Assembly: GCA_017618115.1 (NCBI GenBank)
Contig: JAFZUX010000024.1
Coordinates: forward strand, 31,924-95,923
Reading direction: 5' to 3'
DNA: 64,000 bases
Origin: Bacteroidales bacterium
Lineage (GTDB): Bacteria; Bacteroidota; Bacteroidia; Bacteroidales; UBA932
Position numbers and translations under genes: made by a program. Under the pieces are notes generated by a model, which was given only the letters and a program-made list of their open reading frames with translations, was not told the origin of the DNA and did not search any database. This document shows, one piece after another, positions 4,135 through 30,950 of the stretch. How positions within the stretch are numbered: position 1 is the stretch's first letter; every line of letters begins with the position of its first letter.

Positions 4135-4135
4135 T

Positions 4136-8325: not shown

Positions 8326-8341
8326 TTGTTAGTGTATAACT

Positions 8342-8554: not shown

Positions 8555-8599
8555 ATACTGAGAGCTAAGATACTCTGCTGAGAACTTGGCTTTTTACAA

Positions 8600-9178: not shown

Positions 9179-9204
9179 CGCACACAAAGATAATGTATTT
9201 ATCA

Positions 9205-9600
9205 TTAAATTTTTCTGTTCTTCTTGTTCTTTTTGAGGACTTTCATAAGCCCCTCTGCGGCAATGTTTCTTCTTAATAGACCTATTGCAATTATTGTAAG
9301 TATTGCGGCAATGATTGGGAAAATCATTGATACGGGGAACTTTACAAGAGAGACTTTCAGCTGGTAAAATACAATGATTATCCATGCCTGAAAGGCTATC
9401 AGTACTATAGTGTTGTAAATACAGAGTCTGAGTTGGATATTCTTATGGTTTATTAGGAAGAGGTTTATGAGGTTTATTCCAAATGTTATAACCAATAGAA
9501 CCAGGAAAGGAGTATACGAGGTATAAATCTTTCCAAAGAACATTATAAACAGCAGTACCGCTGAAATGAGCAAAAGTGTAAGGTAATTGATATTTTTCAT
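9205..9600 (-). CDS. Small four-TM integral membrane protein (DUF4293-like by recollection) with a Lys-rich C-terminus
   Basis: 131 aa with four hydrophobic helices and a KKNKKNRKI tail. It ends 26 nt upstream of the Panacea gene. Confidence 0.6.
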   Translation of the reverse strand: MKNINYLTLLLISAVLLFIMFFGKIYTSYTPFLVLLVITFGINLINLFLINHKNIQLRLCIYNTIVLIAFQAWIIIVFYQLKVSLVKFPVSMIFPIIAAILTIIAIGLLRRNIAAEGLMKVLKKNKKNRKI

Positions 9601-9661
9601 AGCGCTAATTTAACATTTCTTGGACATTTTTTATTAAATTTGAACAAAATCAAAACATTGA

Positions 9662-10726
9662 ATGAGTATGAAAAGTAAAAAGATTGCTGCATCTGAACTG
9701 TTGCTGAACGCAGACGGTTCCATATATCATCTTAATTTGCGTCCGGAAGAACTTGCTGATACTGTGATTCTTGTGGGAGATCCTGGCAGAGTTTCCCTGG
9801 TTGCAAAACACATGACCGCTATTGAGTTTACAAAGCAGTCACGTGAGTTCGTATCCACTACAGGTATGTATAACGGCAAGAGAATCACCGTTTTGTCTAC
9901 CGGTATAGGTACAGACAACATTGATATTGTAATGAACGAGTTGGATGCAATTGCCAACATTGATTTCAATACCAGAGAGATTAAGAAGGAGAAGAGAAGT
10001 CTTACTCTGGTACGTATTGGAACCAGCGGTGCACTGCAGCCTGAGATTCCTCTGGGATCATACGTACTCAGCCACGTATCAATTGGTTGTGACGGTTTGG
10101 TTAACTGGTATGCTAACAGAGATTCCGTTACTGACAAGGAGATGGAGAACGCTCTGGTTAAACACATGAACTGGAATAAAAACCTTCCTCGTCCATATCT
10201 TATTAAGAACTCAGAGAAACTTATCAAACTCTTTGAAAAGAAGACAATAAAGGGTATGACAATCTCCGCTCCGGGTTTCTTTGGTCCTCAGGGAAGAGTG
10301 CTCCGTCTGCAGCTGGCTATGCCTGATATGAATGCAAAATTTGAGAGTTTCCGTTCAAAGGATTACAAGATTACAAACTATGAGATGGAGGGCAGTGCAA
10401 TTGCAGGTCTGGCAAAGGAGATGGGACATGAGGCTATTACCGTATGTTGCATCATAGCAAACCGTTACAGAAAAGAGGCCATTACAGACTACCATCCTTA
10501 CATAGAGAAACTCATACTCCTTGTACTGGATACTCTCACCGGTAAGAAGACTAGAAAGAAAGCAGAACAGAAGGCAGAACGCAGGGCTGCAAAGAAAGCG
10601 GAGAAAAAGGCTGCAAAGAAGGGAGTTAACAAGAAGGTTGGCGGAAAGAAGCCGGTAATAAAGAAGGTGGTTTCCAAAATGGCGGCAAAGAAGGTTGCCG
10701 TTAAGAAGGCTCTGAGACAGAAATAG
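9662..10726 (+). CDS. PNP_UDP-type nucleoside phosphorylase (uridine-phosphorylase-like) fused to a Lys/Ala-rich histone-H1-like tail
   Basis: The N-terminal roughly 290 aa carry LVGDPGRV, RIGTSGAL and NYEMEGSAIAG motifs of the phosphorylase superfamily. The last roughly 60 aa are KKTRKKAEQKAERRAAKKAEKKAAKKGVNKKVGGKKPVIKKVVSKMAAKKVAVKKALRQK. Confidence 0.85.
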   Translation: MSMKSKKIAASELLLNADGSIYHLNLRPEELADTVILVGDPGRVSLVAKHMTAIEFTKQSREFVSTTGMYNGKRITVLSTGIGTDNIDIVMNELDAIANIDFNTREIKKEKRSLTLVRIGTSGALQPEIPLGSYVLSHVSIGCDGLVNWYANRDSVTDKEMENALVKHMNWNKNLPRPYLIKNSEKLIKLFEKKTIKGMTISAPGFFGPQGRVLRLQLAMPDMNAKFESFRSKDYKITNYEMEGSAIAGLAKEMGHEAITVCCIIANRYRKEAITDYHPYIEKLILLVLDTLTGKKTRKKAEQKAERRAAKKAEKKAAKKGVNKKVGGKKPVIKKVVSKMAAKKVAVKKALRQK

Positions 10727-16685: not shown

Positions 16686-16687
16686 AA

Positions 16688-18202
16688 TTACTCTTGTCTG
16701 AATGATTCCTTTAGTTCCTCTATCTCTCGTATCAGATTGTTAATCAGCTTCATCTTAAGGTCATAGAGTTCGTCCGAGATATCCACCTTGTAAATGTGAG
16801 GGTTAATCAGACGTCTCTCCGTCTCGTTAAAGCAACTCAGATTCTTTAAGAAACGCTCTCTCTTCTTCTGAACCGGCTCATCTTCATAGCAGATTTTGCC
16901 ATCCTTCATTGTCTGAATCTGAAGCGGTTGGAAGGTGTAACTACCCTTGGCAAACTTCTTACGCTGAGTCTCGTCAAACTCGTTCTGGATGTGAAGTTCC
17001 TCCCCATTCTCAATCTTCTTGCTTGTGGCGTCTCCTCTGAGGCAGGTAACGTCAGCCTTGTATACGCCGTTCTGAATGATTCTGTAAGTGATTTGGAATC
17101 CGGGATTTATAAGCTTTACCTTATCCTCGGATCTCTTGAGGACAGGCTCGTTGTCTACCTGAACCAACTTGTAGACGTTGCCAAAGCAAGGGTTGTGTTT
17201 GCTGGTTGCAATAGCATCTCCCACTCCGTAGGAATCTATCATTGCACCCTGCTTTTCCAACTCTGCAATCAGATACTCGTCCAGTGAGTTGGTAGCAAAT
17301 ATCTTACACTTCTTAAAGCCAGCCTCGTCCAAAATCATGCGGCACTTGCGGGAGAGGTAGGCGAGGTCTCCGCTGTCCAGCCTTATACCGTAACCCTGTG
17401 GGTATGAATCATCTATACCGCACTCGCGATATGCTTTGATTGCATTTCTCAAGCCGCAGTTTATGGTATCGTATGTATCTATGAGGAGAATAAGAGGTTC
17501 TCCCATGTGTGTCTTGATGTAGTTTTTGAAGGCTGTAAACTCACCCTTTATGGAGCAGCCGAATGAGGTGACGTAACTGTGAGCCATGGTTCCGGAGGCC
17601 GGTGTGCCGAATATCTCCGTAGTAAGGACGTTGGAGGAGTTGGCGCAACCTGCTATGTATGCGGCCTTTGCGCCGTAGGTGGCTGCCCATGGACCGTGGG
17701 CGCGGCGGCTGCCGAACTCACTTACAGGCTTTTGCGTGCTTCTGCAGACTCTGCTGGCCTTGGTGGCAATAGCCATCTGATGGTTCATTATGCAGAGCAG
17801 CGGCGTCTCAAGTACCTGAGCCTCAATTATTGGGGCCTCAATTGTAATGACCGGTTCCCTTGGAAAAGCAATCTCTCCCTCTCTCATAGCGTAGACGTTA
17901 CCGGTAAATTTCATCTGTGATGCATACTCGCGGAAAGCCTTGTACTCCTCACCCGGAAGGAACTTCTCAAAGAACTCCGGAGATTTACCTCCCAGGTTGG
18001 CAATCATCTCCATTGCCTCTCTCACGCCGCTTACCACGGCCCAGTTGTTATTGTCCGGTGCCTTACGGTAGAAGAGGTTGAAATAGGCGGTTTTATCCTT
18101 CATTCCGCACTCCAAAAATGACTTTCCCATAGTGTATTGGTACTTGTCGGAGCAGTAGGAAACATCGCTCATTACCTTGCAGAGGTTATCGTTATTCTCC
18201 AT
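16688..18202 (-). CDS. pncB: Nicotinate phosphoribosyltransferase
   Basis: SDKYQYTMGKSF at the N-terminus, then FGSRRAHG and GTMAHSYV motifs. The track start at 18226 is TTG, so I prefer the ATG at 18202. Confidence 0.9.
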   Translation of the reverse strand: MENNDNLCKVMSDVSYCSDKYQYTMGKSFLECGMKDKTAYFNLFYRKAPDNNNWAVVSGVREAMEMIANLGGKSPEFFEKFLPGEEYKAFREYASQMKFTGNVYAMREGEIAFPREPVITIEAPIIEAQVLETPLLCIMNHQMAIATKASRVCRSTQKPVSEFGSRRAHGPWAATYGAKAAYIAGCANSSNVLTTEIFGTPASGTMAHSYVTSFGCSIKGEFTAFKNYIKTHMGEPLILLIDTYDTINCGLRNAIKAYRECGIDDSYPQGYGIRLDSGDLAYLSRKCRMILDEAGFKKCKIFATNSLDEYLIAELEKQGAMIDSYGVGDAIATSKHNPCFGNVYKLVQVDNEPVLKRSEDKVKLINPGFQITYRIIQNGVYKADVTCLRGDATSKKIENGEELHIQNEFDETQRKKFAKGSYTFQPLQIQTMKDGKICYEDEPVQKKRERFLKNLSCFNETERRLINPHIYKVDISDELYDLKMKLINNLIREIEELKESFRQE

Positions 18203-18279
18203 ATCAGAATAGTTATAAACATCCAAAGATACGTTTTTTTGGATATTATTTCCTAAATTTGTTAGACAGTTATACTCTT

Positions 18280-19698
18280 ATGAAACAACTTAAGGATCTA
18301 TTTGAACAATATACCGGTCAGAAGTGCGTCTCCTGCGAGGAGTTGCCTCAGTCCGGCAGCAATCGCAGATACTTCAGGCTCAAGTCTGAGAAAGTCTCCC
18401 TTATAGGAGCAATGGGAACGAGCGTAGAGGAGAACCACGCATTCATCTCTCTTGCAAGACATTTCAAGGAGGTGGGGCTCAACGTTCCGGAGGTTTACAT
18501 CTCCAGCAAGGACGGCATATACTACCTGCAGGAGGATTTGGGAACCGTATCCCTGTTTGATGCAATCAAAAGCGGAAGAGAGAAGGGAAGTTACTCCCAG
18601 AAGGAGGTTACCCTCTTAAAGCGTACAATGGCGTTGCTTCCTAAGTTCCAGTTCATTGGAGGAAGAGATTTGGACTACTCAAATTGCTATCCGCAGCCTG
18701 AGTTTGATGAGAAGAATATCTGGTTTGACTTCAACTACTTCAAATATTGCTTCCTTAAGACCAGCGGCGTGGAGTTCAGTGAGATCCGTCTGCACGAGGA
18801 TATGGAGAAGATGGCAAAGGATCTGCTCTCAGTTATGAAGGGCAACACCTTTATGTACAGAGACTTCCAGGCCAGGAACGTGATGCTGGTAAACGGTATT
18901 CCGTATTTTATTGACTTCCAGGGCGGAAGACGCGGCCCGTTCTACTATGACATTGCCTCATTCGTTTGGCAGGCCAGAGCCAACTATTCAGACGAACTCA
19001 AAGACACCCTCATAGCCACTTACCGTAAGGAACTTAAGAAATACCTGATGGTATCCGAGAAGGAGTTCACTCACAACCTCCGTCTCTTTGTTCTCTTCCG
19101 CACCCTTCAGGTTTTGGGAGCCTACGGTTTCCGCGGATACTTTGAAAAGAAGCCTCACTTCCTTCAGAGCATACCGTTTGCAATTGAGAATTTGAGAAAA
19201 CTCATAAAGAAACCTTTCAACGAGTATCCTTACCTTCAGCAGGTTTTGACCGCCCTCACTAAGATGCGCCAGCTCAAGGACTTAAGAAGGGAGGTAACAC
19301 TGGAGGTGCATGTATTCTCCTTTGCCTATAAGAAGGGTATCCCGATGGATGACAGCGGCAACGGCGGCGGGTATGTATTCGACTGCCGTGCCCTTGAAAA
19401 CCCAGGCAAGTATGAGCGCTTCCGCCTCTTTACCGGATTGGACGAGCCTGTAATCAAATACTTGGAAGACGAGGGCGGAATTAAGAAGTTCCTCTCCAAC
19501 GTTTACGATATGGTGGACGCTCACGTTAAGAGGTTTGTAGAGAGGAAGTTCACTCACCTGCAGGTTTCCTTTGGCTGTACCGGCGGACAGCACCGCTCCG
19601 TCTATTGTGCAAAGCATCTTGCAGACCACATTGCAAAGAAATTCAACGTTAGGGTTAAACTTACCCATAGAGAACTTGGTATAGAGGAGGAGGTATAA
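18280..19698 (+). CDS. Aminoglycoside-phosphotransferase-fold sugar kinase (AmgK-like) fused to a RapZ C-terminal domain
   Basis: The N-terminal roughly 330 aa carry MYRDFQARNVML and YFIDFQGG kinase motifs. The C-terminal roughly 130 aa (YVFDCRALENPGKY...TGLDEPVIKYL...VSFGCTGGQHRSVYCAKHLADHI) align by eye with the RapZ C-terminal region (FLPNP...GCTGGxHRSV). The track start at 18259 is TTG and the ATG is at 18280. Confidence 0.8.
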   Translation: MKQLKDLFEQYTGQKCVSCEELPQSGSNRRYFRLKSEKVSLIGAMGTSVEENHAFISLARHFKEVGLNVPEVYISSKDGIYYLQEDLGTVSLFDAIKSGREKGSYSQKEVTLLKRTMALLPKFQFIGGRDLDYSNCYPQPEFDEKNIWFDFNYFKYCFLKTSGVEFSEIRLHEDMEKMAKDLLSVMKGNTFMYRDFQARNVMLVNGIPYFIDFQGGRRGPFYYDIASFVWQARANYSDELKDTLIATYRKELKKYLMVSEKEFTHNLRLFVLFRTLQVLGAYGFRGYFEKKPHFLQSIPFAIENLRKLIKKPFNEYPYLQQVLTALTKMRQLKDLRREVTLEVHVFSFAYKKGIPMDDSGNGGGYVFDCRALENPGKYERFRLFTGLDEPVIKYLEDEGGIKKFLSNVYDMVDAHVKRFVERKFTHLQVSFGCTGGQHRSVYCAKHLADHIAKKFNVRVKLTHRELGIEEEV

Positions 19699-20502
19699 TT
19701 GAAAGCTCTCATTTTTGCCGCAGGATTGGGTACCAGACTCAAACCTCTGACAGACAACAAGCCCAAGGCGCTGGTTGAGGTTGGAGGGGTTACCTTTTTG
19801 GAGTGGCAGATAAGGCGTCTTGCCTCATTCGGCTTTAAGGATATCGTGATAAACGTCCACCACTTTGGAGAGAAGGTGGAGGAGTTCGTTAGGGAGTTCT
19901 TTAGAAAAAATCCTCATTGCGGCCTTAAGATTCAGTTCTCAGAAGAATTTGATTTACTGAGAGATACCGGAGGAGGGGTGCGTCACGCTGCAAAACTTTT
20001 GGATGACGGAGAACCTTTCCTTATTCACAACGTAGACATTCTCTCAGATTTAGATCTGAAATCTTTTTACAAATCCTCCGTTAAGAGAATTGAAGAGGGT
20101 GTCCTTGCATCTGTCGTAGTGAGCGGGCGTTACAGTGACCGCCGCCTTCTGTTTGACTCCAACAATCTTTTGGCAGGCTGGGAGAATCTGAAGACGTTTG
20201 AGGTTAAGTCTCCCTATAAAAAATATGCATCTCTAAGTGGGAAGGAAGATGCCCATAAAATACTGGAAGAGAAGGGGCTGAAGCCGTTTGCATTCGGGGG
20301 AATCCACGTGCTCTCTCCAAAAGTTTTTGCCCTTATGGAGAGTTGGGAGGAGAAGTTCTCAATTGTAGATTTCTACCTTAATAATGCAGCAAAGTATAAA
20401 ATTGAGGGGCGCTACTTTGAAAATCTCCGCCTTCTGGATGTGGGCCGCTTGGAGCATCTTCCTAAGGCTGAGGAGTTTATGAAAGAATTATCAAATAAGT
20501 AA
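19699..20502 (+). CDS. Sugar-1-phosphate nucleotidyltransferase (MurU-like)
   Basis: A TTG start follows the upstream TAA directly. (M)KALIFAAGLGTRLKPLTDNKPKALV is the classic GxGTRxxPxT nucleotidyltransferase signature. Confidence 0.8.
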   Translation: MKALIFAAGLGTRLKPLTDNKPKALVEVGGVTFLEWQIRRLASFGFKDIVINVHHFGEKVEEFVREFFRKNPHCGLKIQFSEEFDLLRDTGGGVRHAAKLLDDGEPFLIHNVDILSDLDLKSFYKSSVKRIEEGVLASVVVSGRYSDRRLLFDSNNLLAGWENLKTFEVKSPYKKYASLSGKEDAHKILEEKGLKPFAFGGIHVLSPKVFALMESWEEKFSIVDFYLNNAAKYKIEGRYFENLRLLDVGRLEHLPKAEEFMKELSNK

Positions 20503-20506
20503 AGAT

Positions 20507-21235
20507 ATGAAATACGCACTTGTAACAGGAGGTTCAAGAGGTATAGGAGCCGCAATCTGCAAGGCTCTTGCAAAGGAGGGTTATCCTATACTAATAAATT
20601 ATGTAAGCAGAGAGGATGCAGCGCTGAATGTGAAGAGAGAGATTGAGGAGGCGGGCGGTGTTGCAGAGCTTCTAAAGTTCAACGTATCAGAGCCTAAGGA
20701 GGCGGAGGAAGCGTTGGACGCTTGGATGGCCGCTCATCCGGATGATTACATTGCAGTGCTGGTTAACAACGCCGGAATAAGAAGAGATACCCTTTTGATG
20801 TGGATGGAGGATAAGGATTGGTATGACGTAATCAACACCCATCTCAACGGTTTCTTCCACGTTACCCGCAAAGCCATTACTCCTATGGCTAAGAAGAAGT
20901 GGGGCAGGGTGATAAGCGTTGCTTCACTATCGGGAATTAAAGGAATGCCGGGCCAGACAAACTACTCCGCTGCCAAGGGAGGAGTGATTGCAGCAACAAA
21001 GGCGCTCGCTCTGGAGGTGGCAAAGAGAAGGGTTACCGTTAATGCGGTGGCTCCGGGTTTTGTGGAGACGGATATGACTAAAGAGTTGGATCAGAACAGT
21101 TTGAAAGATACCATTCCTGCAGGAAGGTTCGGCACGGCAGAGGAGGTAGCAGATTTGGTTGCCTTTCTGGCCTCAGAGAAAGCGGGTTACATCACCGGTC
21201 AGGTTATTGAGATTAACGGCGGACTTAACACCTAA
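20507..21235 (+). CDS. fabG: 3-oxoacyl-ACP reductase (FabG-type SDR)
   Basis: VTGGSRGIGAAI, NNAG and the NYSAAKGG (YxxxK) motifs in 242 aa. Confidence 0.9.
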   Translation: MKYALVTGGSRGIGAAICKALAKEGYPILINYVSREDAALNVKREIEEAGGVAELLKFNVSEPKEAEEALDAWMAAHPDDYIAVLVNNAGIRRDTLLMWMEDKDWYDVINTHLNGFFHVTRKAITPMAKKKWGRVISVASLSGIKGMPGQTNYSAAKGGVIAATKALALEVAKRRVTVNAVAPGFVETDMTKELDQNSLKDTIPAGRFGTAEEVADLVAFLASEKAGYITGQVIEINGGLNT

Positions 21236-21238
21236 AAG

Positions 21239-22141
21239 ATGGACTGGGAAGGTAAAACCGGAGGCGGCGAGGCCAAGCAGGGGCTTCTGATGCGCATACT
21301 TAAGTATGTGGACATCAGGGTTATATACTGCTTTCTCCCATTTATTGTGATAGGTTACATTATCTTTGCTCCGCGCAGAGCCTACTCCATTTACGCATAC
21401 CTGAGAAGAAGGCAGAAATTCTCATTTGTAAAATCTCTTTGGGGTACCTTCAAAAACCATCTGCTCTTTGGAAAGTTTCTGTTGGACCGCTTCTACATTT
21501 ATGCCGGACACGTTAACAAATATGCAGTTGCAAGGATAGAGAAGGATTTGGTTTTCAAGTATTTCACCACGGAGAAGCCGCTGGTTATGGTGAGCGCCCA
21601 CGTGGGAAATTTTGAAATCTCTTCATACCTCTGCGGCCATCTGCCTAAGAAACTGAACGTTCTGGCCTTTGCGGGAGAGACGGCTCAGATGCAGAAGTTC
21701 CGCAAGGGGGCTATGGAGCAGAACAACATTGAGATGGTGGAGGTGAGTGACAGCATGGAGCACATCTTCAAAATCAACGATGTGATAAGAGACTGTGAAG
21801 CAATCACTTTGGCGGGAGACAGAACTTTCACCGGCCGCCGCAACCATAAGTATAATTTCCTTGGGGCGGAGGCGGAATTTCCAATCGGGATATACAATAT
21901 AGCAGACCGCTTCCAGGCGGATTTCATTGCAATGTTTGTTCTGGGTACCAAAAAGTGGTTCCGTTACAGGGTTCATGTTGAGCAGATTAAGATAGATCCC
22001 CAGATTAAGGGACGTGAGGCCCGCGCCGTTGCATACGGGCAGAAGTATGTGGAGATTCTGGAGCGTGTGATAAGGGAAAACCCTTACCAGTGGTTCAATT
22101 TCTACGATTTCTGGGCCCAGAAGTCTTCAGATGAAAAGTAG
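21239..22141 (+). CDS. LpxL/HtrB-family (lysophospholipid/lipid A-type) acyltransferase
   Basis: 300 aa with an N-terminal TM helix, an SAHVGNFE (Hx4E) motif and the C-terminal PYQWFNFYDFW typical of this family. Confidence 0.8.
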   Translation: MDWEGKTGGGEAKQGLLMRILKYVDIRVIYCFLPFIVIGYIIFAPRRAYSIYAYLRRRQKFSFVKSLWGTFKNHLLFGKFLLDRFYIYAGHVNKYAVARIEKDLVFKYFTTEKPLVMVSAHVGNFEISSYLCGHLPKKLNVLAFAGETAQMQKFRKGAMEQNNIEMVEVSDSMEHIFKINDVIRDCEAITLAGDRTFTGRRNHKYNFLGAEAEFPIGIYNIADRFQADFIAMFVLGTKKWFRYRVHVEQIKIDPQIKGREARAVAYGQKYVEILERVIRENPYQWFNFYDFWAQKSSDEK

Positions 22142-22198
22142 GCTAATTTGATGTTTTAGGCGTTTTTTTGTAAATTGCGCCTTCAAATCTAAAATGAT

Positions 22199-22447
22199 AT
22201 GGATGTACAAAAATTAAAGGCCCAGATTATAGAAGCCCTCAACTTGGAGGAGCTTACTCCGGAGGATATTAAGGATGACGCACCTCTTTTTGGTAAGGAG
22301 GGACTTGGGCTTGACTCAATAGATGCACTGGAACTTATTGTGATGCTTGAGAAGAACTACGGTATCAAACTTGCAGATCCTGCTCAGGCTAAGGGTATTA
22401 TGACCAGTGTAAATTCAATTGCCGAATTCATAGAGAGCAAAAAATAA
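22199..22447 (+). CDS. Acyl carrier protein
   Basis: 82 aa with the GLDSIDALELIVMLE phosphopantetheine-attachment (DSx) motif. Confidence 0.9.
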   Translation: MDVQKLKAQIIEALNLEELTPEDIKDDAPLFGKEGLGLDSIDALELIVMLEKNYGIKLADPAQAKGIMTSVNSIAEFIESKK

Positions 22448-22453
22448 CCCCCT

Positions 22454-23653
22454 ATGTCCTCTGGGATTGCAATAACAGGCATGGGGATAATCTCTGCGTT
22501 GGGTATAGGTTTGGATAAGACCTATACTTCTCTTTTAGAGGGACATTGCCCCATTGCATCTCCCAAATATATCAATACGGTCCATACAAACCTTCCTTGT
22601 GGGGAGGTGGAATTCTCTAATTCTCAACTTGTTGATCTTATAGGAGAGGATAAGCGGAAGCTCTTTCCGCGCTCCGCTCTGTTGGGCATAGTTGCCGCCC
22701 GTGCGGCTGAGCAGGATGCCCGCCTTGAGGAGGGGACAAAGGTTGCTCTTATAAGCGGCACCACCGTTGGAGGTATGGATATCACTGAGAGTTACCTCAA
22801 GAGCTTTTTGGAGGGGCCGGAAGAGTCTGATAAGATTTTTCTTCATCTCGATGGTGTTTGCAATGACTTGATTGCAGACTCTTTAAAGAGCCGTGTGGTA
22901 TATACGGATGTAATATCCACCGCCTGCAGCGCCGCCGCCAACGCCATTGCCTTTGGCGCGGAACTCATTGAGAGCGGACGCTATGACATTATCATAGCGG
23001 GTGGAACAGAGTCACTTACAAAGTATCATTTTAACGGATTCAACTCCCTTATGATTCTGGACGACTCTCCTTGCCGTCCGTTTGACGCCTCCAGAAAGGG
23101 ACTCAACCTTGGAGAGGGAGCGGGATTCATAGTTCTGGAGAGCGTAGAGCACGCTCAAAAGAGGGGAGCAAAGATAAGAGCGCTTCTTTCCGGCTGGGGA
23201 AACGCCTGTGACGCATTCCACCAGACCGCATCATCTCCGGATGGTAAAGGCGCCTATCTGGCTATGACCAAGGCTCTTAAGAAGGCCCATCTGGCTCCTG
23301 AAGATATAGATTACGTTAACGCTCACGGAACCGGAACACAGAACAATGACCTCTCGGAGGGCAAGGCGCTTATGACTCTCTTTGGAGAGAAGATGCCCTA
23401 TGTTGGTTCTACCAAGTGCTTTACGGGACACGCCACCAGTGCGGCAGCCGCTTTGGAGGCAATAATCTCTCTGCTGGTTATTGAAAAGAGATTCATTCCT
23501 GCCAACCTGCGTTTTGAAACAAATGATCCGGGACTTAGTTTCTCTCCTGTTACAGAGACCGTTACGGATATAGAGGTTAAACACGTAATCTCCAACTCCT
23601 TTGGATTCGGAGGAAACGATACGTCACTTATTTTCTCAAAATACGAGCAATGA
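22454..23653 (+). CDS. Beta-ketoacyl-ACP synthase (FabF/KAS II-like)
   Basis: 399 aa with the active-site ISTACSAAANAI (Cys), NAHGTGT (His) and CFTGHATSAAA (His) motifs. Confidence 0.9.
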   Translation: MSSGIAITGMGIISALGIGLDKTYTSLLEGHCPIASPKYINTVHTNLPCGEVEFSNSQLVDLIGEDKRKLFPRSALLGIVAARAAEQDARLEEGTKVALISGTTVGGMDITESYLKSFLEGPEESDKIFLHLDGVCNDLIADSLKSRVVYTDVISTACSAAANAIAFGAELIESGRYDIIIAGGTESLTKYHFNGFNSLMILDDSPCRPFDASRKGLNLGEGAGFIVLESVEHAQKRGAKIRALLSGWGNACDAFHQTASSPDGKGAYLAMTKALKKAHLAPEDIDYVNAHGTGTQNNDLSEGKALMTLFGEKMPYVGSTKCFTGHATSAAAALEAIISLLVIEKRFIPANLRFETNDPGLSFSPVTETVTDIEVKHVISNSFGFGGNDTSLIFSKYEQ

Positions 23654-24612
23654 AGAGGGGGAAAGCATACATAATCTCTGCAGCTGCAATCTCCGCACAG
23701 GAGCCGTTCAAAGGGGTGAACTCCTTTGAGGCGCTGCCTGTGGAGGGCGGTAGGGTGCTTTGCAAAGACCCTGACTTCAAGCAGTTTATACCTCCGATGG
23801 AGGCCCGCAGAATGAGTTCCATTTTAAAGAGAACTCTTTCCGTTTCAAAATATGTGATGGAGAATTCTCCAATAAAGTGTCCGGATGCAATAATCTCCGG
23901 AACCGGTAACGGCTGCGTCGGAGACACCGAGGTATTTTTAATGAAGATGATAGATGACGGAGAGAGTATGCTCAACCCTTCAAAGTTCATCTGTTCTACA
24001 CCTAACACCTGTGCTTCACAGATTGCTATTGCTCTGGGTTGCAACGGTTTCAACTCCACACACGTAAACGATGCCTTCTCAATGGAGGGGGCGCTGCTGG
24101 ATTCAATGATGCAGTTTGAAAAGGGAGAGGCTTCATCCATTATGATGGTTGTTGCAGACCAGATGACGGATAATCTTTACAAGATGCTGAGCTTCCTTCC
24201 AAAACTCTCATCAATTCCTCTCTCTGAGGGGGCAACCGCCTTCCTATTGGAGAACAAGCCGTCTGAAAGGGCTTACGCCGTGATTGAGGATATGATTCAG
24301 ATTCGCGGAGGCGTTTCTGACAATCTGGATAAATTCTTGTCAACCAATGGTCTAACCTGGGATGATATAGACCTTGTAATGACTTCGGATTTTCCTAATC
24401 CAAAGAGGGAGAACTTTGCGTTCATTCCTAAGGAGAAGGAGCGTCTTACATACAAGCAGTGGTGCGGAGAGTATCTTTCCGCTTCAGCATTCGGACTGTT
24501 CTGCTGCTCGGATATTTTGAAAAACTCCGCCTCAAAGAAGAGAATTCTTCTTGCAGTCCGCAGCGGAGCCAACTATTCATTCACCTTAATAAGTAACTTA
24601 TGTACAAACTGA
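23650..24612 (+). CDS. Ketosynthase-like partner (chain-length-factor-type beta-ketoacyl synthase N-terminal-domain protein)
   Basis: 320 aa with an ATGA overlap with the KS gene. It has a KS N-terminal-like fold signature (STPNTCASQIAIALG) but no recognisable HGTGT or GH catalytic His motifs. Confidence 0.7.
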   Translation: MKRGKAYIISAAAISAQEPFKGVNSFEALPVEGGRVLCKDPDFKQFIPPMEARRMSSILKRTLSVSKYVMENSPIKCPDAIISGTGNGCVGDTEVFLMKMIDDGESMLNPSKFICSTPNTCASQIAIALGCNGFNSTHVNDAFSMEGALLDSMMQFEKGEASSIMMVVADQMTDNLYKMLSFLPKLSSIPLSEGATAFLLENKPSERAYAVIEDMIQIRGGVSDNLDKFLSTNGLTWDDIDLVMTSDFPNPKRENFAFIPKEKERLTYKQWCGEYLSASAFGLFCCSDILKNSASKKRILLAVRSGANYSFTLISNLCTN

Positions 24613-24956
24613 TACTGCTCTCTATAGTTCAAAGTACTCTGCTGGTATTAGGTCAGATGTTTCTAAAGTTTACAATGCAGAAAGTAGACAAACTGGCTTT
24701 TACCTGGAGTTGTATCAAACAGTTGTTTACAGATATAAACTTTTTGCTCTGCGGTCTTTGCATGGGCGGAGGCTCCGTTCTATGGTTCTATATCTTAAGG
24801 AATTATCCGTTCAGCGCCGCATATCCTATGATCAGTTTCAGTTATGTTCTGGGACTTGTGGTTGCAGCGGTTGTCTTCCACGAGCACATTCCGTTTGTAA
24901 GGTATGTGGGTGTTGCTCTGATAATTATAGGTGCAATTCTAATTGTACAGAAATAG
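24600..24956 (+). CDS. Small 4-TM EamA/SMR-like membrane protein (ArnE/ArnF-like flippase subunit candidate)
   Basis: 118 aa with four hydrophobic helices. It overlaps the upstream gene by 13 nt. Confidence 0.6.
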   Translation: MYKLILLSIVQSTLLVLGQMFLKFTMQKVDKLAFTWSCIKQLFTDINFLLCGLCMGGGSVLWFYILRNYPFSAAYPMISFSYVLGLVVAAVVFHEHIPFVRYVGVALIIIGAILIVQK

Positions 24957-24960
24957 AGTG

Positions 24961-25692
24961 ATGGAGGGAGTTTGTTTTATAGTGCCGTTTTACAACAATA
25001 CAAACTCCGTAGGCGGAGTGGTACGCTCTATAAATGAAATCGGCTATAAGGTAATTGCGGTAAATGACGGTTCTACGGATGACAGCCTTGCAAAGGCGGA
25101 GGCTGCAAATCCTTATGCCATAGTCTCTTACCCAAAGAATAAAGGAAAGGGTTATGCTATCCGCGCCGGTTTTAAGAAGGCGCTGGAGTTGGGATTTGAG
25201 TACGCCCTGGTCTTTGATGCAGACGGGCAGCACACAATATCCGGAGCGGAGAAGATGATGACTATGGCGGAGAGTCTGCCGGAGAAGGAGCGCCAAAGAA
25301 GCATAATAATAGGAAGCCGTTCTCAAAGGGGAATAGACTCCGGCGGAAAGTTTGCCAACAACTTTTCAAACTTCTGGCTTACAGTTCAGACGGGATATAA
25401 ACTGCCGGATACTCAGAGCGGCTGCCGCCTCTATCCGTTAAAGAAAATTGCAAAGATTCATTTCTTCGGAAACAGATACGAGTTTGAAACAGAGGTGCTT
25501 GTACGCTCCGCCTGGCGCCGTGTAAAACTTCTGGTGGTTCCGGTAGATGTAATCTACCCAACTGACAGAGTGACCCATTTCCGTAAGGGAGCGGACTTTA
25601 CACGCATCAGCGTAATGAATACCTTCCTCACTTTGGGTGCTCTCTTTTACGGCTATCCAAGAATGGCCCTTCAAAAGTTATTTGTAAAATAA
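24961..25692 (+). CDS. GT2 family glycosyltransferase (polyprenyl-phosphate sugar transferase type, ArnC/DPM1-like)
   Basis: FIVPFYNN...NDGSTDDS...DADGQH motifs with a C-terminal hydrophobic segment. The ATG at 24961 is preferred over the TTG at 24943. Confidence 0.85.
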   Translation: MEGVCFIVPFYNNTNSVGGVVRSINEIGYKVIAVNDGSTDDSLAKAEAANPYAIVSYPKNKGKGYAIRAGFKKALELGFEYALVFDADGQHTISGAEKMMTMAESLPEKERQRSIIIGSRSQRGIDSGGKFANNFSNFWLTVQTGYKLPDTQSGCRLYPLKKIAKIHFFGNRYEFETEVLVRSAWRRVKLLVVPVDVIYPTDRVTHFRKGADFTRISVMNTFLTLGALFYGYPRMALQKLFVK

Positions 25693-28600
25693 TGGAGAGA
25701 TTCTTTTTAAAGATATATGATTTCTTTGCAAACGGAAGGCGTTATCTTGCTCTCCTTCTCCCCATTCTTTTGGCGGGGTGCTTCTATCTCTGTATGCGTC
25801 ATATCACTCTGAACGAGGATATTGCAGCCTTTTTGCCTTACGGTTCCGGAGAGAACAGCCGTCAAAGCCAGTTCGTATACAAGAATCTCAGAATGCAGGA
25901 TAAGGTTGTCTCCTTAATGTCTCTTAAGGAGAAACCTAAAGATACTCAGGAGGGTATAGAGCGTCTGACTCAGGCGGCGGACGAATACTCAGACCGCTTC
26001 CTCTCTATGGATTCAGAGGGAATCAAAGAGCCTACGGTAAGAATTGATCCAACCTCATTTCTCGCAACCGCTTCATTTGTAGCGGAGAACATGCCTTACT
26101 TCCTGGAGGATGAGGATTACGCCCGTATGGATTCCATACTCTTAAACGGCAACTTTGCTCAGATGCTGGAGCAGGACAAGGAATCTATGATTACCTCCAA
26201 CGGCCTCACTCAAAGCATAGTGGCGGCAGATCCGCTTCAGTTCTCCTCCAAACTGCTCAAAAAACTTACCGCACTCGGAACGGAGAGCGGCTTTAAAGTA
26301 ATTGGGGAGTATCTCTTCACGCCTGACTCAACGGCAATTATGATGAACTTCTCATCTGAGTTTGGCGGAAGCGAGACCGGCAACAACTCTGAACTATTAA
26401 GACGAGTATATGAGATAAGAGACTCCGTAACAGCCCTTTATCCGGATGTGCAGATGGAGTTCACCGGCTCTCCGGTAATAGCCGTAATGAATGCGGAGCG
26501 TATGAAAAAGGATGCGGTACGCTGCGCCGTTCTTGCCATTGTTCTGATTGTAGGACTTTTAGCCTGGTACTTCAGAAGGGTAAGACCTATACTTTTAATC
26601 TGCGTTCCGGTAATATTCGGAATAATGGCGGGGCTTGCCTTTATGGGACTTGTGAAGGAGAGCGTAAGCAGCGTGGCCCTTGCCGCCTGCTGCGTAATAT
26701 TCGGTATAGCAGTAGATTATTCACTTTTGTACTCCACCCGTTTGGGCTTCACCTCTAACGCTCGCCAGACACTTTCAGACATAGTCTCCCCGATGGTTAT
26801 AGGTAACATAACCACTGTGGGAGCCTTCCTCTCTCTGCTGGTTATGAGCGCTTCCGGAATGAGAGACTTCGGCCTCTTTGCCGCCGTCTCTTTGGTGGGA
26901 GCCATCTTCTTTGTAATCATCTTCTTACCGCATTGGGTAGGAGAAAAACACTATAAACCTAAGAGCAACGGCTGGCTTGGCCGCTGGGCCGGTTTCCGCC
27001 CGGAGGAGAACCGCTATCTCTTCTGGCTTCTGGTGGTTGCAACCGTGGTATTCTATCTCTTCAGCCGCAAGGTTACATTCAGCGGAGATTTTACCAAGAT
27101 AAACTATATGGCACCCGCTCAATCTCAGTTACTTGACAAGCTCTCATCCTACTCCGGAAGAGAGGGGAGCGTGGCGGTTTATGCGGTTACGGAAGGGGCC
27201 ACTTTAAGTGACGCTCTTTATGCAGCGGAGAAAAACAGAGTCTTTACAGAGTCAAGTGTCAAGAGCGGTAACGTTCTATCGTCAAGAGGAATAGGGCCGT
27301 TCCTTCCGTCAGAGAAGGAGCAGCAGAGGAGGCTCTCTCTCTGGAAATCATTTGTGGAGAAAAACGGTGAGACCCTGCTTAAATCATTAGATAAGGCGGG
27401 TGAGGCGGCCGGTTTTACAAGTGACGCTTTTGATCCTTTCAAAGCGCTCTTTACAAGTGAGTTAAGCGTGCAGAAGGAGGAGTTCTTCTCCCCAATCGGG
27501 ACCCTTATGGCTCCTTTCATTTTGAGAGATTCCTCCACATCCATCGTGATGGAGATTCTCTACACTCCTAAGGAGAATCTAAATTCACTATACGCTTCAT
27601 ACAAAGATTACAACAACAAGGCGGAGGGCTCCTTCCTATTTGATTCTTACTCAATGACGGACGGGATGATAGATATTCTGCAGAAAGATTTTGACAAGGT
27701 GCTGGCTATCTGTTCCGTCCTGGTTTTCATATTTTTATGGATTGCCTTCCGCCGTCTGGAACTTGCTTTTTGCGCCTTTCTTCCAATGGTTGTCTCCTGG
27801 ATTTGGATAACCGGAATTATGGGAATATTCGGGGTAAGTTTCAACATTGTAAATATCATTCTTGCAACCTTCATCTTCGGATTGGGAGATGATTATACCA
27901 TCTTTATGGTGGAGGGTTTGCAGTACGAATACACCAATAAAAAGCCGTTGCTGCAATCCTACAAGACCGGTGTAACTCTCTCAGCCATAACTATGTTCGT
28001 GGGAGTGGGCTCTCTTATCTTTGCTCTCCATCCGGCTCTTCACTCTCTGGGTGCGGTTGCGGTTATAGGTCTTATCTGCGTGGTTCTTCTGGCATTTATG
28101 CTCCCTCCGGTAATCTTCCGCTTTTTGGTTTGCAAGTCATTCAGAAAGGAGAAAAAAGAGAGGGTGCTTCCAATAAGGCTATCGGATATCTTTATAACTC
28201 TCTACTGCGTAGCGGTATTTGTGGCTGTATGCCTCTGGCTGAAGCTTAAAACGCTCTTTAATCCAAAGTTAAAGGGAGAGAGACTCCGCAGAGTTATTAC
28301 CCGTTATATGAGGTTTTTCTCCTCAAAGATGCCAAGGGTAAAGTTCTTTGTAAAGGGTGAAGAAAACTTCTCATCCTCAGAGCCTTGCATAATTATTTCA
28401 AACCACCAGTCTCACCTGGATCTGCTCTATTTCCTATCGCTGAGTGAAAAGATAGTGGTTGTTACCAACAAATGGGTTTATAAATCCCCGGTTTATGGTA
28501 ACTTTGTGCGCAAAGCGGGAAACGTTTGCATTGAGGAGGGGATGGAGATAAACAGAGAGAAACTTCTCTCCCTCAAGAAAGAGGGGTGCTCAATATTGAT

Positions 28601-28964
28601 ATTCCCGGAGGGGACAAGAAGCGAGGATTGTGATATCCTTAAGTTCCACAGCGGTGCTTTTTCACTGGCGGAGGAACTTCAAATGGATATTCTCCCCGTT
28701 ATACTGTTCGGGCCGGGTGAGGTTTTCCCTAAGGGGGAGCACCTTTTAAGAAGGGGAAGAGTGGTTTGGGAGTTTAAGGAGAGAATCCCTTACCAGGAGT
28801 TGAGCAGGTTTGGAGCGAGAGCGTTGAAACAGTCTCAGGCAATGAGAAGATACTATCGCGATGAATATGCCGCTCTATGCGCAACTGTTTATGGTGAAGA
28901 GGATTATGGCAGGATGAGAGAGAAGGATAAAAACTTGTACAAGTCAGATGAAGAGATTGTTTAA
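25692..28964 (+). CDS. MMPL/RND-type exporter fused to a C-terminal PlsC-type acyltransferase domain
   Basis: 1090 aa. Two 5-6 TM bundles flank large loops over roughly 800 aa. The C-terminal domain has NHQSHLDLLY (Hx4D) and FPEGTRS acyltransferase motifs. The start shares one base (25692) with the GT2 stop codon in a TAATG junction. Confidence 0.8.
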   Translation: MERFFLKIYDFFANGRRYLALLLPILLAGCFYLCMRHITLNEDIAAFLPYGSGENSRQSQFVYKNLRMQDKVVSLMSLKEKPKDTQEGIERLTQAADEYSDRFLSMDSEGIKEPTVRIDPTSFLATASFVAENMPYFLEDEDYARMDSILLNGNFAQMLEQDKESMITSNGLTQSIVAADPLQFSSKLLKKLTALGTESGFKVIGEYLFTPDSTAIMMNFSSEFGGSETGNNSELLRRVYEIRDSVTALYPDVQMEFTGSPVIAVMNAERMKKDAVRCAVLAIVLIVGLLAWYFRRVRPILLICVPVIFGIMAGLAFMGLVKESVSSVALAACCVIFGIAVDYSLLYSTRLGFTSNARQTLSDIVSPMVIGNITTVGAFLSLLVMSASGMRDFGLFAAVSLVGAIFFVIIFLPHWVGEKHYKPKSNGWLGRWAGFRPEENRYLFWLLVVATVVFYLFSRKVTFSGDFTKINYMAPAQSQLLDKLSSYSGREGSVAVYAVTEGATLSDALYAAEKNRVFTESSVKSGNVLSSRGIGPFLPSEKEQQRRLSLWKSFVEKNGETLLKSLDKAGEAAGFTSDAFDPFKALFTSELSVQKEEFFSPIGTLMAPFILRDSSTSIVMEILYTPKENLNSLYASYKDYNNKAEGSFLFDSYSMTDGMIDILQKDFDKVLAICSVLVFIFLWIAFRRLELAFCAFLPMVVSWIWITGIMGIFGVSFNIVNIILATFIFGLGDDYTIFMVEGLQYEYTNKKPLLQSYKTGVTLSAITMFVGVGSLIFALHPALHSLGAVAVIGLICVVLLAFMLPPVIFRFLVCKSFRKEKKERVLPIRLSDIFITLYCVAVFVAVCLWLKLKTLFNPKLKGERLRRVITRYMRFFSSKMPRVKFFVKGEENFSSSEPCIIISNHQSHLDLLYFLSLSEKIVVVTNKWVYKSPVYGNFVRKAGNVCIEEGMEINREKLLSLKKEGCSILIFPEGTRSEDCDILKFHSGAFSLAEELQMDILPVILFGPGEVFPKGEHLLRRGRVVWEFKERIPYQELSRFGARALKQSQAMRRYYRDEYAALCATVYGEEDYGRMREKDKNLYKSDEEIV

Positions 28965-29784
28965 GATATTGTTTTGCTCTGCGGCTCTGCTTATGGCGGG
29001 CTCCGCTCTGCTTGCTCAGCACAGGGTGGATAAGAAGAGGCTATGGGAAGGCGAGAAGACAGAGAGAAGTTATAAGAGAGTTAAGATATTCACATACGCT
29101 CCGGATGCGGGGACCAACGGCAGCAATCCCGCTGTAATTATCCTTCCCGGAGGAAGTTACAGATACCTGGCTATAAACCAGGAGGGGTTTGACGTTGCAA
29201 AGAATTTTGCCAAGAGGGGCTATCTGGCAATTGTGCTGCGTTACAGAATGGGCTGGTTTGGAGCGCATTATCCGGATCAGTTGGAGGATTACAGGCGCGC
29301 AATTACCTATCTTAAAGCAAATTCCACCGCTTTGGGAATAGATACCACAAAGATTGCGGTAGTTGGTTTTTCTGCCGGAGGACATCTTGCCGGATGTGCC
29401 GCTCTGGAGGAGAATCCAAAGTACCGTCCTGCATACGTTGCTATGCTTTACCCGGTTGTCACTTTGCGTGAACCTTACTGCCACAGACTTTCCAAGAAGA
29501 ATCTTCTCCGCGGAGATACAACTCTTATTGCAAAACTCTCTCTGGAAGAGAACGTTAGAGAGGATATGGCTCCCGTTTTCCTGCTTCACTGTGAGGATGA
29601 TCCTATTGTGAAATCACACGGTTCTCACTCTATGGCTTCCGAATTAGAAAGAAAAGGAGTACCTTGCATGGTGGAATTCCATCCAAAGGGCGGCCACGGC
29701 TTTGGCGTGAGGGCTGCAAAGAACTCCGGAGCAAGGGGTTGGCAGGATAGATTCCTAAAATGGATTGGTACACTCCAAAACTAA
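28948..29784 (+). CDS. Secreted alpha/beta hydrolase (esterase/lipase)
   Basis: 278 aa with a signal peptide (LLMAGSALLAQ), a GFSAGGHLAG nucleophile elbow and C-terminal HCEDDPIV / GGHGF motifs. It overlaps the exporter gene by 17 nt. Confidence 0.8.
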   Translation: MKRLFKILFCSAALLMAGSALLAQHRVDKKRLWEGEKTERSYKRVKIFTYAPDAGTNGSNPAVIILPGGSYRYLAINQEGFDVAKNFAKRGYLAIVLRYRMGWFGAHYPDQLEDYRRAITYLKANSTALGIDTTKIAVVGFSAGGHLAGCAALEENPKYRPAYVAMLYPVVTLREPYCHRLSKKNLLRGDTTLIAKLSLEENVREDMAPVFLLHCEDDPIVKSHGSHSMASELERKGVPCMVEFHPKGGHGFGVRAAKNSGARGWQDRFLKWIGTLQN

Positions 29785-30950
29785 AGATTATGGACATCAA
29801 CAGAAAGACACCTAAGGATATTTCCAACGAGTGGGACGATATTCGCCCTTACAGAGATGATGAAATTTCCGACGCCATGCAGAGAATTGCATCTGACGAG
29901 AACTTTCCTGCTGTTATGAACTTTATCTATGAGGGGAAGGATATTGAGAAGAGAATCAACGAGTTCCGCTCATTCAAAACGGTGAGTCAGTTCCAGGTGG
30001 GCTTTATGTTTGATGCCATTAACGCCATTGTCAGAAAGACTACGGACGGTTTCACGTATGACGGTTTTGAGAACCTGGAACCGGGCAAGGGTTACCTCTT
30101 TGTCTCCAACCACAGAGATATTCTTCTGGATGCCGCACTGCTTCAGATTGCGCTGCATAACAACGGTTTGGACTGCTCAGAGATTACCTTTGGAGACAAC
30201 CTTATGCAACCGGGAATGGTCTCAGACGTAGGCAAATCCAACCGTATGTTCAAGGTTGTAAGAGGCGGAACCACAAAGGATTTCTACAAGACCAGCCACC
30301 ATCTCTCCAGTTATATCCGTTACGTGATTAACGAGAGAAAGACCTCCGTTTGGATTGCTCAGCGCAACGGAAGAACCAAGGACGGAGATGACAAGACCAG
30401 CCAGACCGTTTTGAAGATGTTCTCTTTATCCGGAGATAAAAACATTGGCACCAACTTCTCCTCACTCAACATTGTCCCGATGGCTGTATCATACGAGTGG
30501 GAGACCTGTATAACACAGAAGGTGAGGGAACTCTATCTCTCTCAGGATCACCCGTATATAAAGGAGAAAGGGGAGGACTTCAGAAGCATTATGGAGGGCA
30601 TTCTCTCTCCTAAGGGCAAGGTTCATATTCAGATATGCCAGCCTATAACGGCGGAGGAACTTCTTACCGCCGGCTCACTGGATCGCAACGAGGCCCTGGC
30701 ATATATGGCATCCGTTATAGACACCAGAATTTACAACGGCTATAAACTCTTTAAGAACAACTATATAGCATACGATATGCTGTACAACACCTTTAAGTTT
30801 ACAGACAAGTATACCAAAGAGGAGTACAAGCAGTTTGCAGATAATATGCATCTTACCCTCTCCCGTTGGAAGGACATTCTTCTTCCTCTGATGGATATCT
30901 ATCTGAAGGTTTACAGCAATCCGGTAAAGAACAAGCTCTCTGTTGAATAA
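29760..30950 (+). CDS. PlsC-family glycerolipid acyltransferase (long form)
   Basis: 396 aa with VSNHRDILLDAAL (Hx4D) and AQRNGRTKDG motifs. An alternative ATG lies at 29790. Confidence 0.8.
   Translation: MDWYTPKLKIMDINRKTPKDISNEWDDIRPYRDDEISDAMQRIASDENFPAVMNFIYEGKDIEKRINEFRSFKTVSQFQVGFMFDAINAIVRKTTDGFTYDGFENLEPGKGYLFVSNHRDILLDAALLQIALHNNGLDCSEITFGDNLMQPGMVSDVGKSNRMFKVVRGGTTKDFYKTSHHLSSYIRYVINERKTSVWIAQRNGRTKDGDDKTSQTVLKMFSLSGDKNIGTNFSSLNIVPMAVSYEWETCITQKVRELYLSQDHPYIKEKGEDFRSIMEGILSPKGKVHIQICQPITAEELLTAGSLDRNEALAYMASVIDTRIYNGYKLFKNNYIAYDMLYNTFKFTDKYTKEEYKQFADNMHLTLSRWKDILLPLMDIYLKVYSNPVKNKLSVE

Follow-up and report, generated by a model that had tools for sequence, protein, structure and literature searches.

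What does a pigment-type gene cluster make when the genes for its chromophore are gone, and do the genes that stand in line with it belong to the same pathway? Both questions are raised by a locus of twelve genes at positions 18280-30950 of a 64-kb (64,000 nt) stretch of DNA, hereafter the window, from a rumen Bacteroidales bacterium. The organism is uncultured and known only from metagenomes, in which identical contigs are present; the closest genome is a yak rumen metagenome-assembled genome (MAG), RGIG10318, whose transporter fusion is 92% identical to that of the window. A preliminary description of the sequence had treated the twelve co-directional open reading frames (ORFs) as one coupled locus built around a core like that of aryl polyene (APE) and flexirubin clusters. 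The twelve ORFs do all lie on the + strand of this interval, and the likeness of the core was confirmed. The unity of the locus was not, and it is best read as two plus ten genes. We consider it probable (roughly 0.6) that two things have been joined here by deletion: a housekeeping pair (genes 1 and 2) and a naturally minimized APE-type cluster (genes 3-12) with a non-pigment lipid product. The new element is a reduced variant of a known cluster family from which all chromophore-specific genes have been lost. Few bacterial biosynthetic gene clusters are as widespread as those of the APE and flexirubin type, yet the half of them devoted to lipid attachment and export is poorly understood.

The family membership of the core rests on the ketoreductase (KR) encoded by gene 3, which passes the cut-off of the NCBIfam FlxB equivalog (387.8 bits against 340), and on the identities of this and further proteins to E. 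coli Ape proteins. Compared with the ape cluster of E. coli CFT073 and Xenorhabdus doucetiae, the window has counterparts of ApeQ, ApeE, ApeO, ApeC, ApeJ-N, ApeJ-C, ApeM and ApeD. It keeps the whole lipid-anchor and export part, together with one set of ketosynthase (KS), chain-length factor (CLF), KR and acyl carrier protein (ACP). It differs in lacking ApeR, ApeI, ApeP, ApeH, ApeK, ApeB, ApeL, ApeN, ApeG, ApeA and ApeF, in having its ApeD-like domain fused to the transporter, and in encoding the two ApeJ domains as separate genes; its EamA-like protein, secreted esterase and GPAT-fold acyltransferase are without E. coli equivalents. Set against the flexirubin cluster of Chitinophaga pinensis and Flavobacterium johnsoniae (flxA-flxY; gene roles in PMC3992019), the window is without the tyrosine ammonia-lyase (TAL; FlxA), the ligase (FlxY), both dehydratases (of the FlxF/FlxS or ApeP/ApeI kind) and the thioesterase, and also without methyltransferase, the extra KSs, a second ACP and LolA. 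Because the flexirubin-type starter and dehydratase genes are absent from it, neither an aryl starter nor a dedicated polyene can be made with the genes of this locus. The domain labels first given to the twelve genes match the Pfam and NCBIfam results.

These absences were already part of the preliminary description, which listed no dehydratase, thioesterase, lyase, ligase, LolA or methyltransferase, and tblastn, profile hidden Markov models (HMMs) and Pfam agree with it for the window. The accessory proteins of three full clusters (the Odoribacter locus L086, the locus L091 and the E. coli CFT073 ape cluster) gave no tblastn match in the window. Profile HMMs were built from 16-54 homologues each (49 seeds for ApeI, 29 for ApeP) and run against six-frame window ORFs of at least 40 aa; those for ApeI, ApeP, LolA, 4HBT, AMP-ligase, methyltransferase, FAD oxidase and the protein fused to the initiating KS matched nothing there. 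The profiles for ApeI and for 'hyp197' were made from stand-alone proteins; sets that included ApeI-GT2 and KS-hyp fusions falsely matched the family 2 glycosyltransferase (GT2) and the KS of the window. Neither the dehydratase pair (ApeI and ApeP; FlxF and FlxS), sought by tblastn with three query sets and by HMMs, nor the enzymes of aryl starter supply and loading (TAL FlxA, ligase FlxY/ApeH, initiating KS ApeR and thioesterase) were found within the 64 kb, and this second set is present in its entirety at the sister locus L091/L093. The MMPL domain is present in the window. LolA is absent from it and from L006, a locus of an equally reduced sister species, and present in L007, L009, L012 and L091. 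The remaining genes of the window have housekeeping functions only, as judged by Pfam.

Gene order was compared over 80 genome loci with 10-kb flanks, and is collinear with the window. The full clusters of Bacteroidales, which are uncharacterised and carry the antiSMASH label 'arylpolyene', begin with a lyase and a KR gene, recalling flxA and flxB (PMC3992019), and share with the collinear window their KS, CLF, ACP, glycosyltransferase, exporter and acyltransferase genes; LolA is a further member of the full set. A full cluster occupies the same chromosomal site in the sister genome GCA_965298315.1, with an MMPL fusion 53% identical to that of the window and with matching flanks: FtsX, SLT, Porin_10, NAPRTase, kinase and NTP-transferase upstream, DJ-1 and tricorn protease downstream. 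In the window, NAPRTase, Porin_10 and SLT lie upstream on the minus strand, and DJ-1 (minus strand) and then a tricorn-type protease lie downstream (Pfam). The sister cluster runs in the order aromatic ammonia-lyase (described as tyrosine-ammonia-lyase-like), FabG, LpxL-like acyltransferase, ApeP, 4HBT, KS (583 aa), ACP, KS-CLF fusion, EamA, LolA, ApeI, GT2, MMPL-acyltransferase, esterase and acyltransferase. This is taken as the ancestral order, and the window follows it except for the lyase, ApeP, 4HBT, the initiating KS, LolA and ApeI, which it lacks. The full cluster of Odoribacter (L086) is arranged as KS, ACP, LpxL-like acyltransferase, methyltransferase, ApeP-like dehydratase, 4HBT thioesterase, KS, a hypothetical gene, ACP, KS, CLF, EamA, LolA, ApeI-like dehydratase, GT2, MMPL-acyltransferase, two FAD oxidases, AMP-ligase and acyltransferase. 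The window is collinear with L091, L092 and L086, shares its flanks with L091/L093 and is nested in a clade with fuller clusters. Genes 3-12 descend from a flexirubin/APE-type cluster by deletion at no fewer than three internal positions, and what is left has stayed collinear with it.

The same comparison changes how the remaining genes are to be seen. The acyltransferases and the esterase had been described as standing in place of the missing enzymes, when they are ordinary members of complete clusters, and the GT2, the flippase-like protein and the MMPL fusion are likewise standard parts of full Bacteroidales clusters. The idea that the esterase and extra acyltransferases are lineage-specific additions was rejected, since they are present in full clusters; an esterase of the gene 11 type occurs in the full clusters L091 and L092 and at many other loci.

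Close relatives differ in how much they have kept. The window and L006 retain none of the accessory genes and L007 retains LolA only, while L009 has ApeP, LolA and ApeI fused to GT2, and L012 has the initiating KS, LolA and an ApeI-GT2 fusion, with the block of kinase, nucleotidyltransferase, FabG and LpxL-like genes inverted. A neighbor-joining tree from KS, GT2, the MMPL-acyltransferase fusion and the final acyltransferase has the topology ((window, L006), (L012, (L009, L007))) and places the full clusters L091 and L092 outside this group. Taken together, the tree and the pattern of accessory genes indicate that the dehydratases were lost on at least two independent occasions, the lyase and thioesterase having gone before.

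Progressive and parallel gene loss of this kind is also what would be expected of a decaying relic, a cluster on its way out whose leftover genes are functionless and eroding. We consider this very improbable. Between the window and L006 (dS 0.2-0.58), the ratio of nonsynonymous to synonymous substitution (dN/dS) is 0.013-0.126 across all ten cluster genes, and although KS and CLF have the highest values of the cluster (0.10-0.13), the whole range of 0.01-0.13 is indistinguishable from that of flanking housekeeping genes (0.03-0.09 for NAPRTase, kinase, tricorn protease and porin). Both species, ~0.2-0.6 apart in dS, have the ten ORFs intact; the catalytic residues and motifs are kept, the spacing at the junctions has shrunk to 3-6 nt, and no remains of pseudogenes are left at the deletion sites. 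From the strong purifying selection, the intact motifs and the lack of remnants it follows that the reduced cluster has been kept by selection since the losses, and it is not decaying. That the chromophore genes are gone while the rest is strongly selected suggests that the lipid and export half is valuable by itself, and it defines a minimal gene set.

Genes 1 and 2 have a different history. Gene 1 joins its kinase domain to a RapZ C-terminal domain (PF22740) that had gone unreported, and its PDB matches are the RapZ structures 5o5s/5o5o and the aminoglycoside phosphotransferase 3csv. In RapZ, this C-terminal domain binds sugar phosphate. Fusions of an APH kinase with the RapZ domain are near-universal in Bacteroidales and always adjoin a MurU-like gene, Porin_10 and an SLT transglycosylase. 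The top PDB matches of gene 2 are the MurU structures 4y7t and 8hhd, and in the neighborhoods of other genomes it is always paired with a kinase of the gene 1 type. The pair resembles the AmgK/MurU salvage pair of Pseudomonas putida in that an anomeric-sugar-kinase-like APH domain is followed by a MurU-like nucleotidyltransferase, in its conservation beside a lytic transglycosylase gene, and in the presence of AnmK elsewhere in the window. It differs in that both proteins fall far under the NCBIfam equivalog cut-offs, and thus outside both equivalogs (69.7 bits against 550 for AmgK, 123.4 bits against 250 for MurU), and in the extra RapZ domain of the kinase. Tannerella forsythia has been reported to use AmgK/MurU (PMC7670621). 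At 52021-54903 the window holds an M23 peptidase gene followed by the gene for AnmK (anhydro-MurNAc kinase); on the strength of these two genes the organism has peptidoglycan-recycling functions, which fits a cell-wall role for genes 1 and 2. The pair is AmgK/MurU-like and probably related to the cell wall.

Could the pair nevertheless work for the cluster? In that case all twelve genes would form a single pathway, with the kinase and nucleotidyltransferase supplying a nucleoside-diphosphate sugar (such as a hexosamine) to the GT2, and the preliminary description had tied the two blocks together in this way. The stop codon of the NTP-transferase gene is 4 nt from the FabG start, a TAA is followed directly by the TTG start between genes 1 and 2, and the only recognizable intergenic promoter motif of the Bacteroidetes type lies upstream of the kinase. 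The inversion in L012 has left the kinase, NTP-transferase, FabG and LpxL-like genes joined in a single block. The known APE lipid has an N-acetylgalactosamine (GalNAc)-phosphate head group, so a supply of UDP-N-acetylhexosamine (UDP-HexNAc) would be chemically sensible. We nevertheless find this proposal quite unlikely. Central metabolism already supplies UDP-HexNAc. The pair is found across Bacteroidales and is far better conserved than the cluster genes, gene 1 homologues having 65-87% identity over thousands of Bacteroidales proteins. In four of four independent Bacteroidales neighborhoods outside the clade the pair stands beside Porin_10 and SLT, with no APE genes and with unrelated genes after it; NAPRTase and FtsX are also adjacent in two of these four, and in one the kinase, nucleotidyltransferase, Porin_10 and SLT genes are co-directional. 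The SLT lytic transglycosylase and Porin_10 adjoin the pair in the window and in every neighborhood looked at. Among the 80 related cluster loci, the pair is seen in the closest relatives only, a count limited by the 10-kb flanks, beyond which full clusters often reach. The two blocks are thus not co-conserved, a result that the preliminary description had itself named as refuting its proposal and that does so for these two genes: genes 1 and 2 are a housekeeping pair separate from the lipid cluster, and their adjacency is positional.

The tight junction between the blocks has its own explanation. The sister genome has a lyase gene between the pair and FabG, with gaps of 87 and 94 nt, and the 4-nt junction of the window is a by-product of the deletion of that gene. 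Tight gene coupling can therefore come from deletion and is no proof of a shared pathway. All the junctions quoted in the preliminary description are right when read directly from the sequence (Table 1), to which we add the one between the EamA and GT2 genes, not listed there. Such close spacing is normal in Bacteroidales operons and not unusual in itself.

Table 1. Genes and candidate transcription signals of the locus, in window coordinates, with the junction to the following gene and dN/dS between the window and L006
Feature	Position	Strand	Junction with next gene	dN/dS	Basis
TAAATTTG, match to Bacteroidetes -7 promoter consensus TAnnTTTG	18254..18261	+			motif scan
Gene 1, APH-family kinase with RapZ C-terminal domain, 472 aa	18280..19698 (ORF opens 18259)	+	TAA immediately followed by TTG (19698/19699)		Pfam APH, PapZ_C
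Gene 2, MurU-like sugar-1-phosphate nucleotidyltransferase, 267 aa, TTG start	19699..20502	+	+4 nt (20502/20507)		Pfam NTP_transferase
Gene 3, ketoreductase (FabG), FlxB/ApeQ orthologue	20507..21235	+	+3 nt (21235/21239)	0.039	NCBIfam, blast
Gene 4, LpxL-type acyltransferase, counterpart of ApeJ C-terminal acyltransferase domain	21239..22141	+	57-nt gap	0.050	Pfam Lip_A_acyltrans
GTAAATTGCGCC, conserved 12-mer in the 57-nt gap before the ACP gene	22169..22180	+			comparison across relatives
Gene 5, acyl carrier protein, ApeE type	22199..22447	+	+6 nt (22447/22454)	0.026	Pfam PP-binding
Gene 6, elongating ketosynthase, ApeO type	22454..23653	+	ATGA overlap at 23650	0.126	Pfam ketoacyl-synt N and C domains
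Gene 7, chain-length-factor-like KS partner, ApeC type	23650..24612	+	13-nt overlap at 24600	0.102	Pfam Ketoacyl-synt_2
Gene 8, small four-helix EamA / ArnE-ArnF-like membrane protein, 118 aa	24600..24956	+	+4 nt, or 14-nt overlap with TTG start	0.013	Pfam EamA
Gene 9, GT2 of the DPM1/ArnC/PpgS kind, counterpart of ApeJ N-terminal domain	24961..25692 (alternative TTG start 24943)	+	TAATG at 25690		Pfam Glycos_transf_2
Gene 10, MMPL/RND transporter (ApeM-like) with C-terminal PlsC-type acyltransferase (ApeD-like), 1090 aa	25692..28964	+	17-nt overlap at 28948	0.099	Pfam MMPL, Acyltransferase
Gene 11, secreted BD-FAE / alpha-beta-hydrolase esterase	28948..29784	+	25-nt overlap or +5 nt, by start 29760/29790	0.099	Pfam BD-FAE
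Gene 12, GPAT/PlsC-fold acyltransferase, 386 aa	29790..30950 (alternative start 29760)	+		0.016	weak Pfam PF01553, fold search

To consider what the reduced cluster might make, we used the APE lipid of Xenorhabdus as the closest chemical guide. That lipid has a glycerol-phosphate-GalNAc backbone with two acyl chains bound to glycerol, one saturated and one a 3-hydroxy polyenoyl chain placed by ApeD, and one bound to the sugar, the aryl polyene placed by ApeJ; ApeM exports it (bioRxiv 10.1101/2020.12.19.423268; PMC8253772). By analogy, gene 12 and the ApeD-like PlsC domain of gene 10 would acylate glycerol-3-phosphate, and the GT2, which resembles the ApeJ N-terminal domain and is of the lipid-phosphate glycosyltransferase kind, would add a hexosamine to the phosphate. 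KS/CLF and KR would build an ACP-bound chain, which with no dedicated dehydratase would most simply be 3-hydroxyacyl, or saturated if housekeeping FabZ and FabI step in, and in neither case an aryl polyene. The LpxL-like protein of gene 4, as the counterpart of the ApeJ C-terminal domain, would then transfer the chain held by the cluster ACP, the EamA-like protein and the MMPL domain would move the lipid outward, and the secreted (periplasmic) esterase could trim it.

The product is thus most likely a non-pigment, APE-lipid-like acylated glycophospholipid, with its structure and the order of steps drawn from the Xenorhabdus system; a hexosamine-phosphate glycerolipid with a 3-hydroxyacyl chain would be one example. 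An aryl polyene pigment is unlikely, barring the presence of the missing genes in another part of the genome. With the dehydratases and starter enzymes absent from the window, the envelope lipid proposed in the preliminary description in place of a pigment is, by inference, still the most reasonable product. The fuller idea of a pigment cluster turned into a membrane-lipid pathway, in which the anchor-lipid machinery and a dehydratase-less KS/CLF/KR/ACP set make and export an undescribed acylated glycophospholipid, can be put forward only tentatively, at somewhat less than even odds. Were this so, the APE anchor lipid would serve a purpose that does not depend on the chromophore, and the locus would be a natural minimal system in which to study the roles of ApeD-, ApeJ- and ApeM-type proteins. 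Genome mining keyed to the APE KS probably labels this locus 'arylpolyene', though its genes cannot make an aryl polyene, a mislabelling of relevance to surveys that count such clusters in rumen and gut MAGs.

Several points weigh against this interpretation. The scheme borrows its sugar, its acyl acceptor and its sequence of steps by analogy from a proteobacterial system at only 21-48% identity, and three of the proteins given a part in it (the EamA-like protein, the esterase and gene 12) have no E. coli counterpart. Gene 12 also has HRDILLD in place of the canonical HX4D motif. The absences hold for the 64-kb window, the examined part of this genome, and a second locus elsewhere is possible. 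The pigment might still be made from a split cluster, with the missing enzymes and a LolA-like carrier at that second locus, or a housekeeping FabZ, acting in trans. Split layouts do exist: at about ten related genome loci whose upstream side was fully covered, no KS, ACP or GT2 gene precedes the MMPL-acyltransferase fusion. Furthermore, the cluster L044 (Bacteroidales UBA5326, 1-23159), from an unrelated lineage, lacks both ApeI and ApeP yet keeps its aryl-starter and carrier genes (thioesterase, initiating KS, LolA and AMP-ligase) along with a FAD oxidase, so the absence of dehydratases alone is no proof that no polyene is made, and dehydration may occur in trans.

Even so, we regard a split cluster as unlikely in this case. 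Genes have been removed at three or more separate positions of an otherwise collinear cluster, and the graded loss in situ among close relatives, from L009 through L007 to the window, fits deletion better than a series of coordinated relocations; within the window, neither tblastn nor profile HMMs picked up anything related. As a separate observation, L044 has a B12-binding radical SAM gene at the usual place of ApeP and the methyltransferase, and a radical SAM gene also occurs in L092.

The individual proteins of the reduced cluster bear the features expected of their families (Table 1). Gene 3 aligns with E. coli ApeQ along its whole length (44% identity) and has the GxxxGxG, NNAG and YxxxK motifs. 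Gene 4 aligns with ApeJ residues 274-549 (22% identity, E 9e-15) and has the motif H121-x4-E; a PDB sequence search with it gave no matches. It was also considered as the ApeD equivalent, which was rejected, as it matches the ApeJ C-terminal domain and ApeD matches the transporter-fused PlsC domain. The ACP resembles ApeE (48% identity) and ApeF (42%) and has the serine of its DSI motif. Gene 6 aligns along its whole length with ApeO (33% identity), and its Cys-His-His falls in register with that of ApeO, from which the KS is predicted to be catalytically intact. Gene 7 gave no direct BLAST match to ApeC, but an alignment shows both proteins to be without the catalytic Cys and the two His residues.

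Genes 8 and 9 recall ArnC with ArnE-ArnF, and DPM1/PpgS, in that a small GT2 of the polyprenyl-phosphate glycosyltransferase kind adjoins a 118-aa four-helix EamA/SMR-like protein. They differ in that all scores fall under the NCBIfam family cut-offs: gene 8 reaches 55 bits for ArnF (cut-off 99) and 51 bits for ArnE (cut-off 92), and gene 9 reaches 64-68 bits for AglJ and PpgS. Gene 8 is a putative flippase for a lipid-linked sugar. Gene 9 is 32% identical to ApeJ residues 8-235, and its top PDB match is the Dol-P-Man synthase 5mlz (E 6e-4); by analogy with the ape system, its acceptor is probably the phosphate of a glycerophospholipid rather than undecaprenyl phosphate.

The N-terminal part of gene 10 matches ApeM across 800 aa (21% identity) and its C-terminal part matches ApeD (25% identity, E 4e-10); the motifs NHQSHLD and FPEGTRS are present. 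The MMPL-PlsC fusion is widespread across Bacteroidales; loci in which it lacks KS, ACP and GT2 upstream at 10-kb coverage include L014, L021, L026, L028, L040, L042, L062 and others. Gene 11 begins with a signal peptide (MKRLFKILFCSAALLMAGSALLA) and has the nucleophile motif GFSAG.

Gene 12 is the least annotated gene of the cluster and among the most strongly constrained. A PDB sequence search gave no matches for it, and a fold search was needed. Its AlphaFold2 model (pLDDT 88) has as top Foldseek matches in the PDB GPAT1 8e4y (E 2e-9, probability 1.0), PlsC 5kym and the plastid GPATs 8ia1, 1k30 and 1iuq, and on this basis the protein is predicted to fold as a GPAT/PlsC-type acyltransferase. 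It is 54% identical to the acyltransferase of the Odoribacter cluster. Its motif N107-H108-R-D-I-L-L-D114 can be written as HX5D or as H-x-D, and H108, D110 and D114 are invariant in 26 homologues.

The transcription signals of the locus point to a possible division within it. The motif TAAATTTG lies 26 nt before the ATG of the kinase gene, with a TTTG 16 nt upstream of the motif, and it is the only intergenic -7 motif of the locus; the other six lie in coding sequence and occur at the chance rate of ~0.58 per kb. In the gap before the ACP gene, the 12-mer GTAAATTGCGCC is found exactly in L006 (6478-6489), L007 (5874-5885), L091 (5199-5210) and L092 (4665-4676), and with one or two base changes in L009 and L012. 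It lies ~20-45 nt upstream of the cluster ACP start, full clusters included, and has been kept although synonymous sites are saturated among these genomes, whose proteins are ~50-90% identical. The element may act as a promoter within the cluster or as a site for a regulator. The breakpoint of the L012 inversion lies in the same interval, between the LpxL-like gene and the ACP gene and just upstream of the retained initiating KS. On the basis of the conserved 12-mer and of this breakpoint, the locus may consist of two transcription units. Scans of the locus for sigma-70 promoters and intrinsic terminators gave counts no higher than in shuffled sequence and are uninformative on operon structure.

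A few further observations concern the related loci and the wider window. The ApeI (FabA-like dehydratase)-GT2 fusions lie at 8892-9998 in L009 and at 8848-9993 in L012. L091 has two fusions of its own, a KS-CLF protein of 732 aa (5495-7693) and the initiating KS joined to a conserved protein of ~190 aa (3451-5202). At 16110-17734, between its cluster and the DJ-1 gene, L091 also carries an AbiEii/DUF6088 toxin-antitoxin-like pair that is absent from the window. The window has an antitoxin-like gene with a SocA/Panacea domain at 8600-9385 on the minus strand, in a patch of low GC content (0.385 in 8001-10000) that may be a small mobile or toxin-antitoxin insertion.

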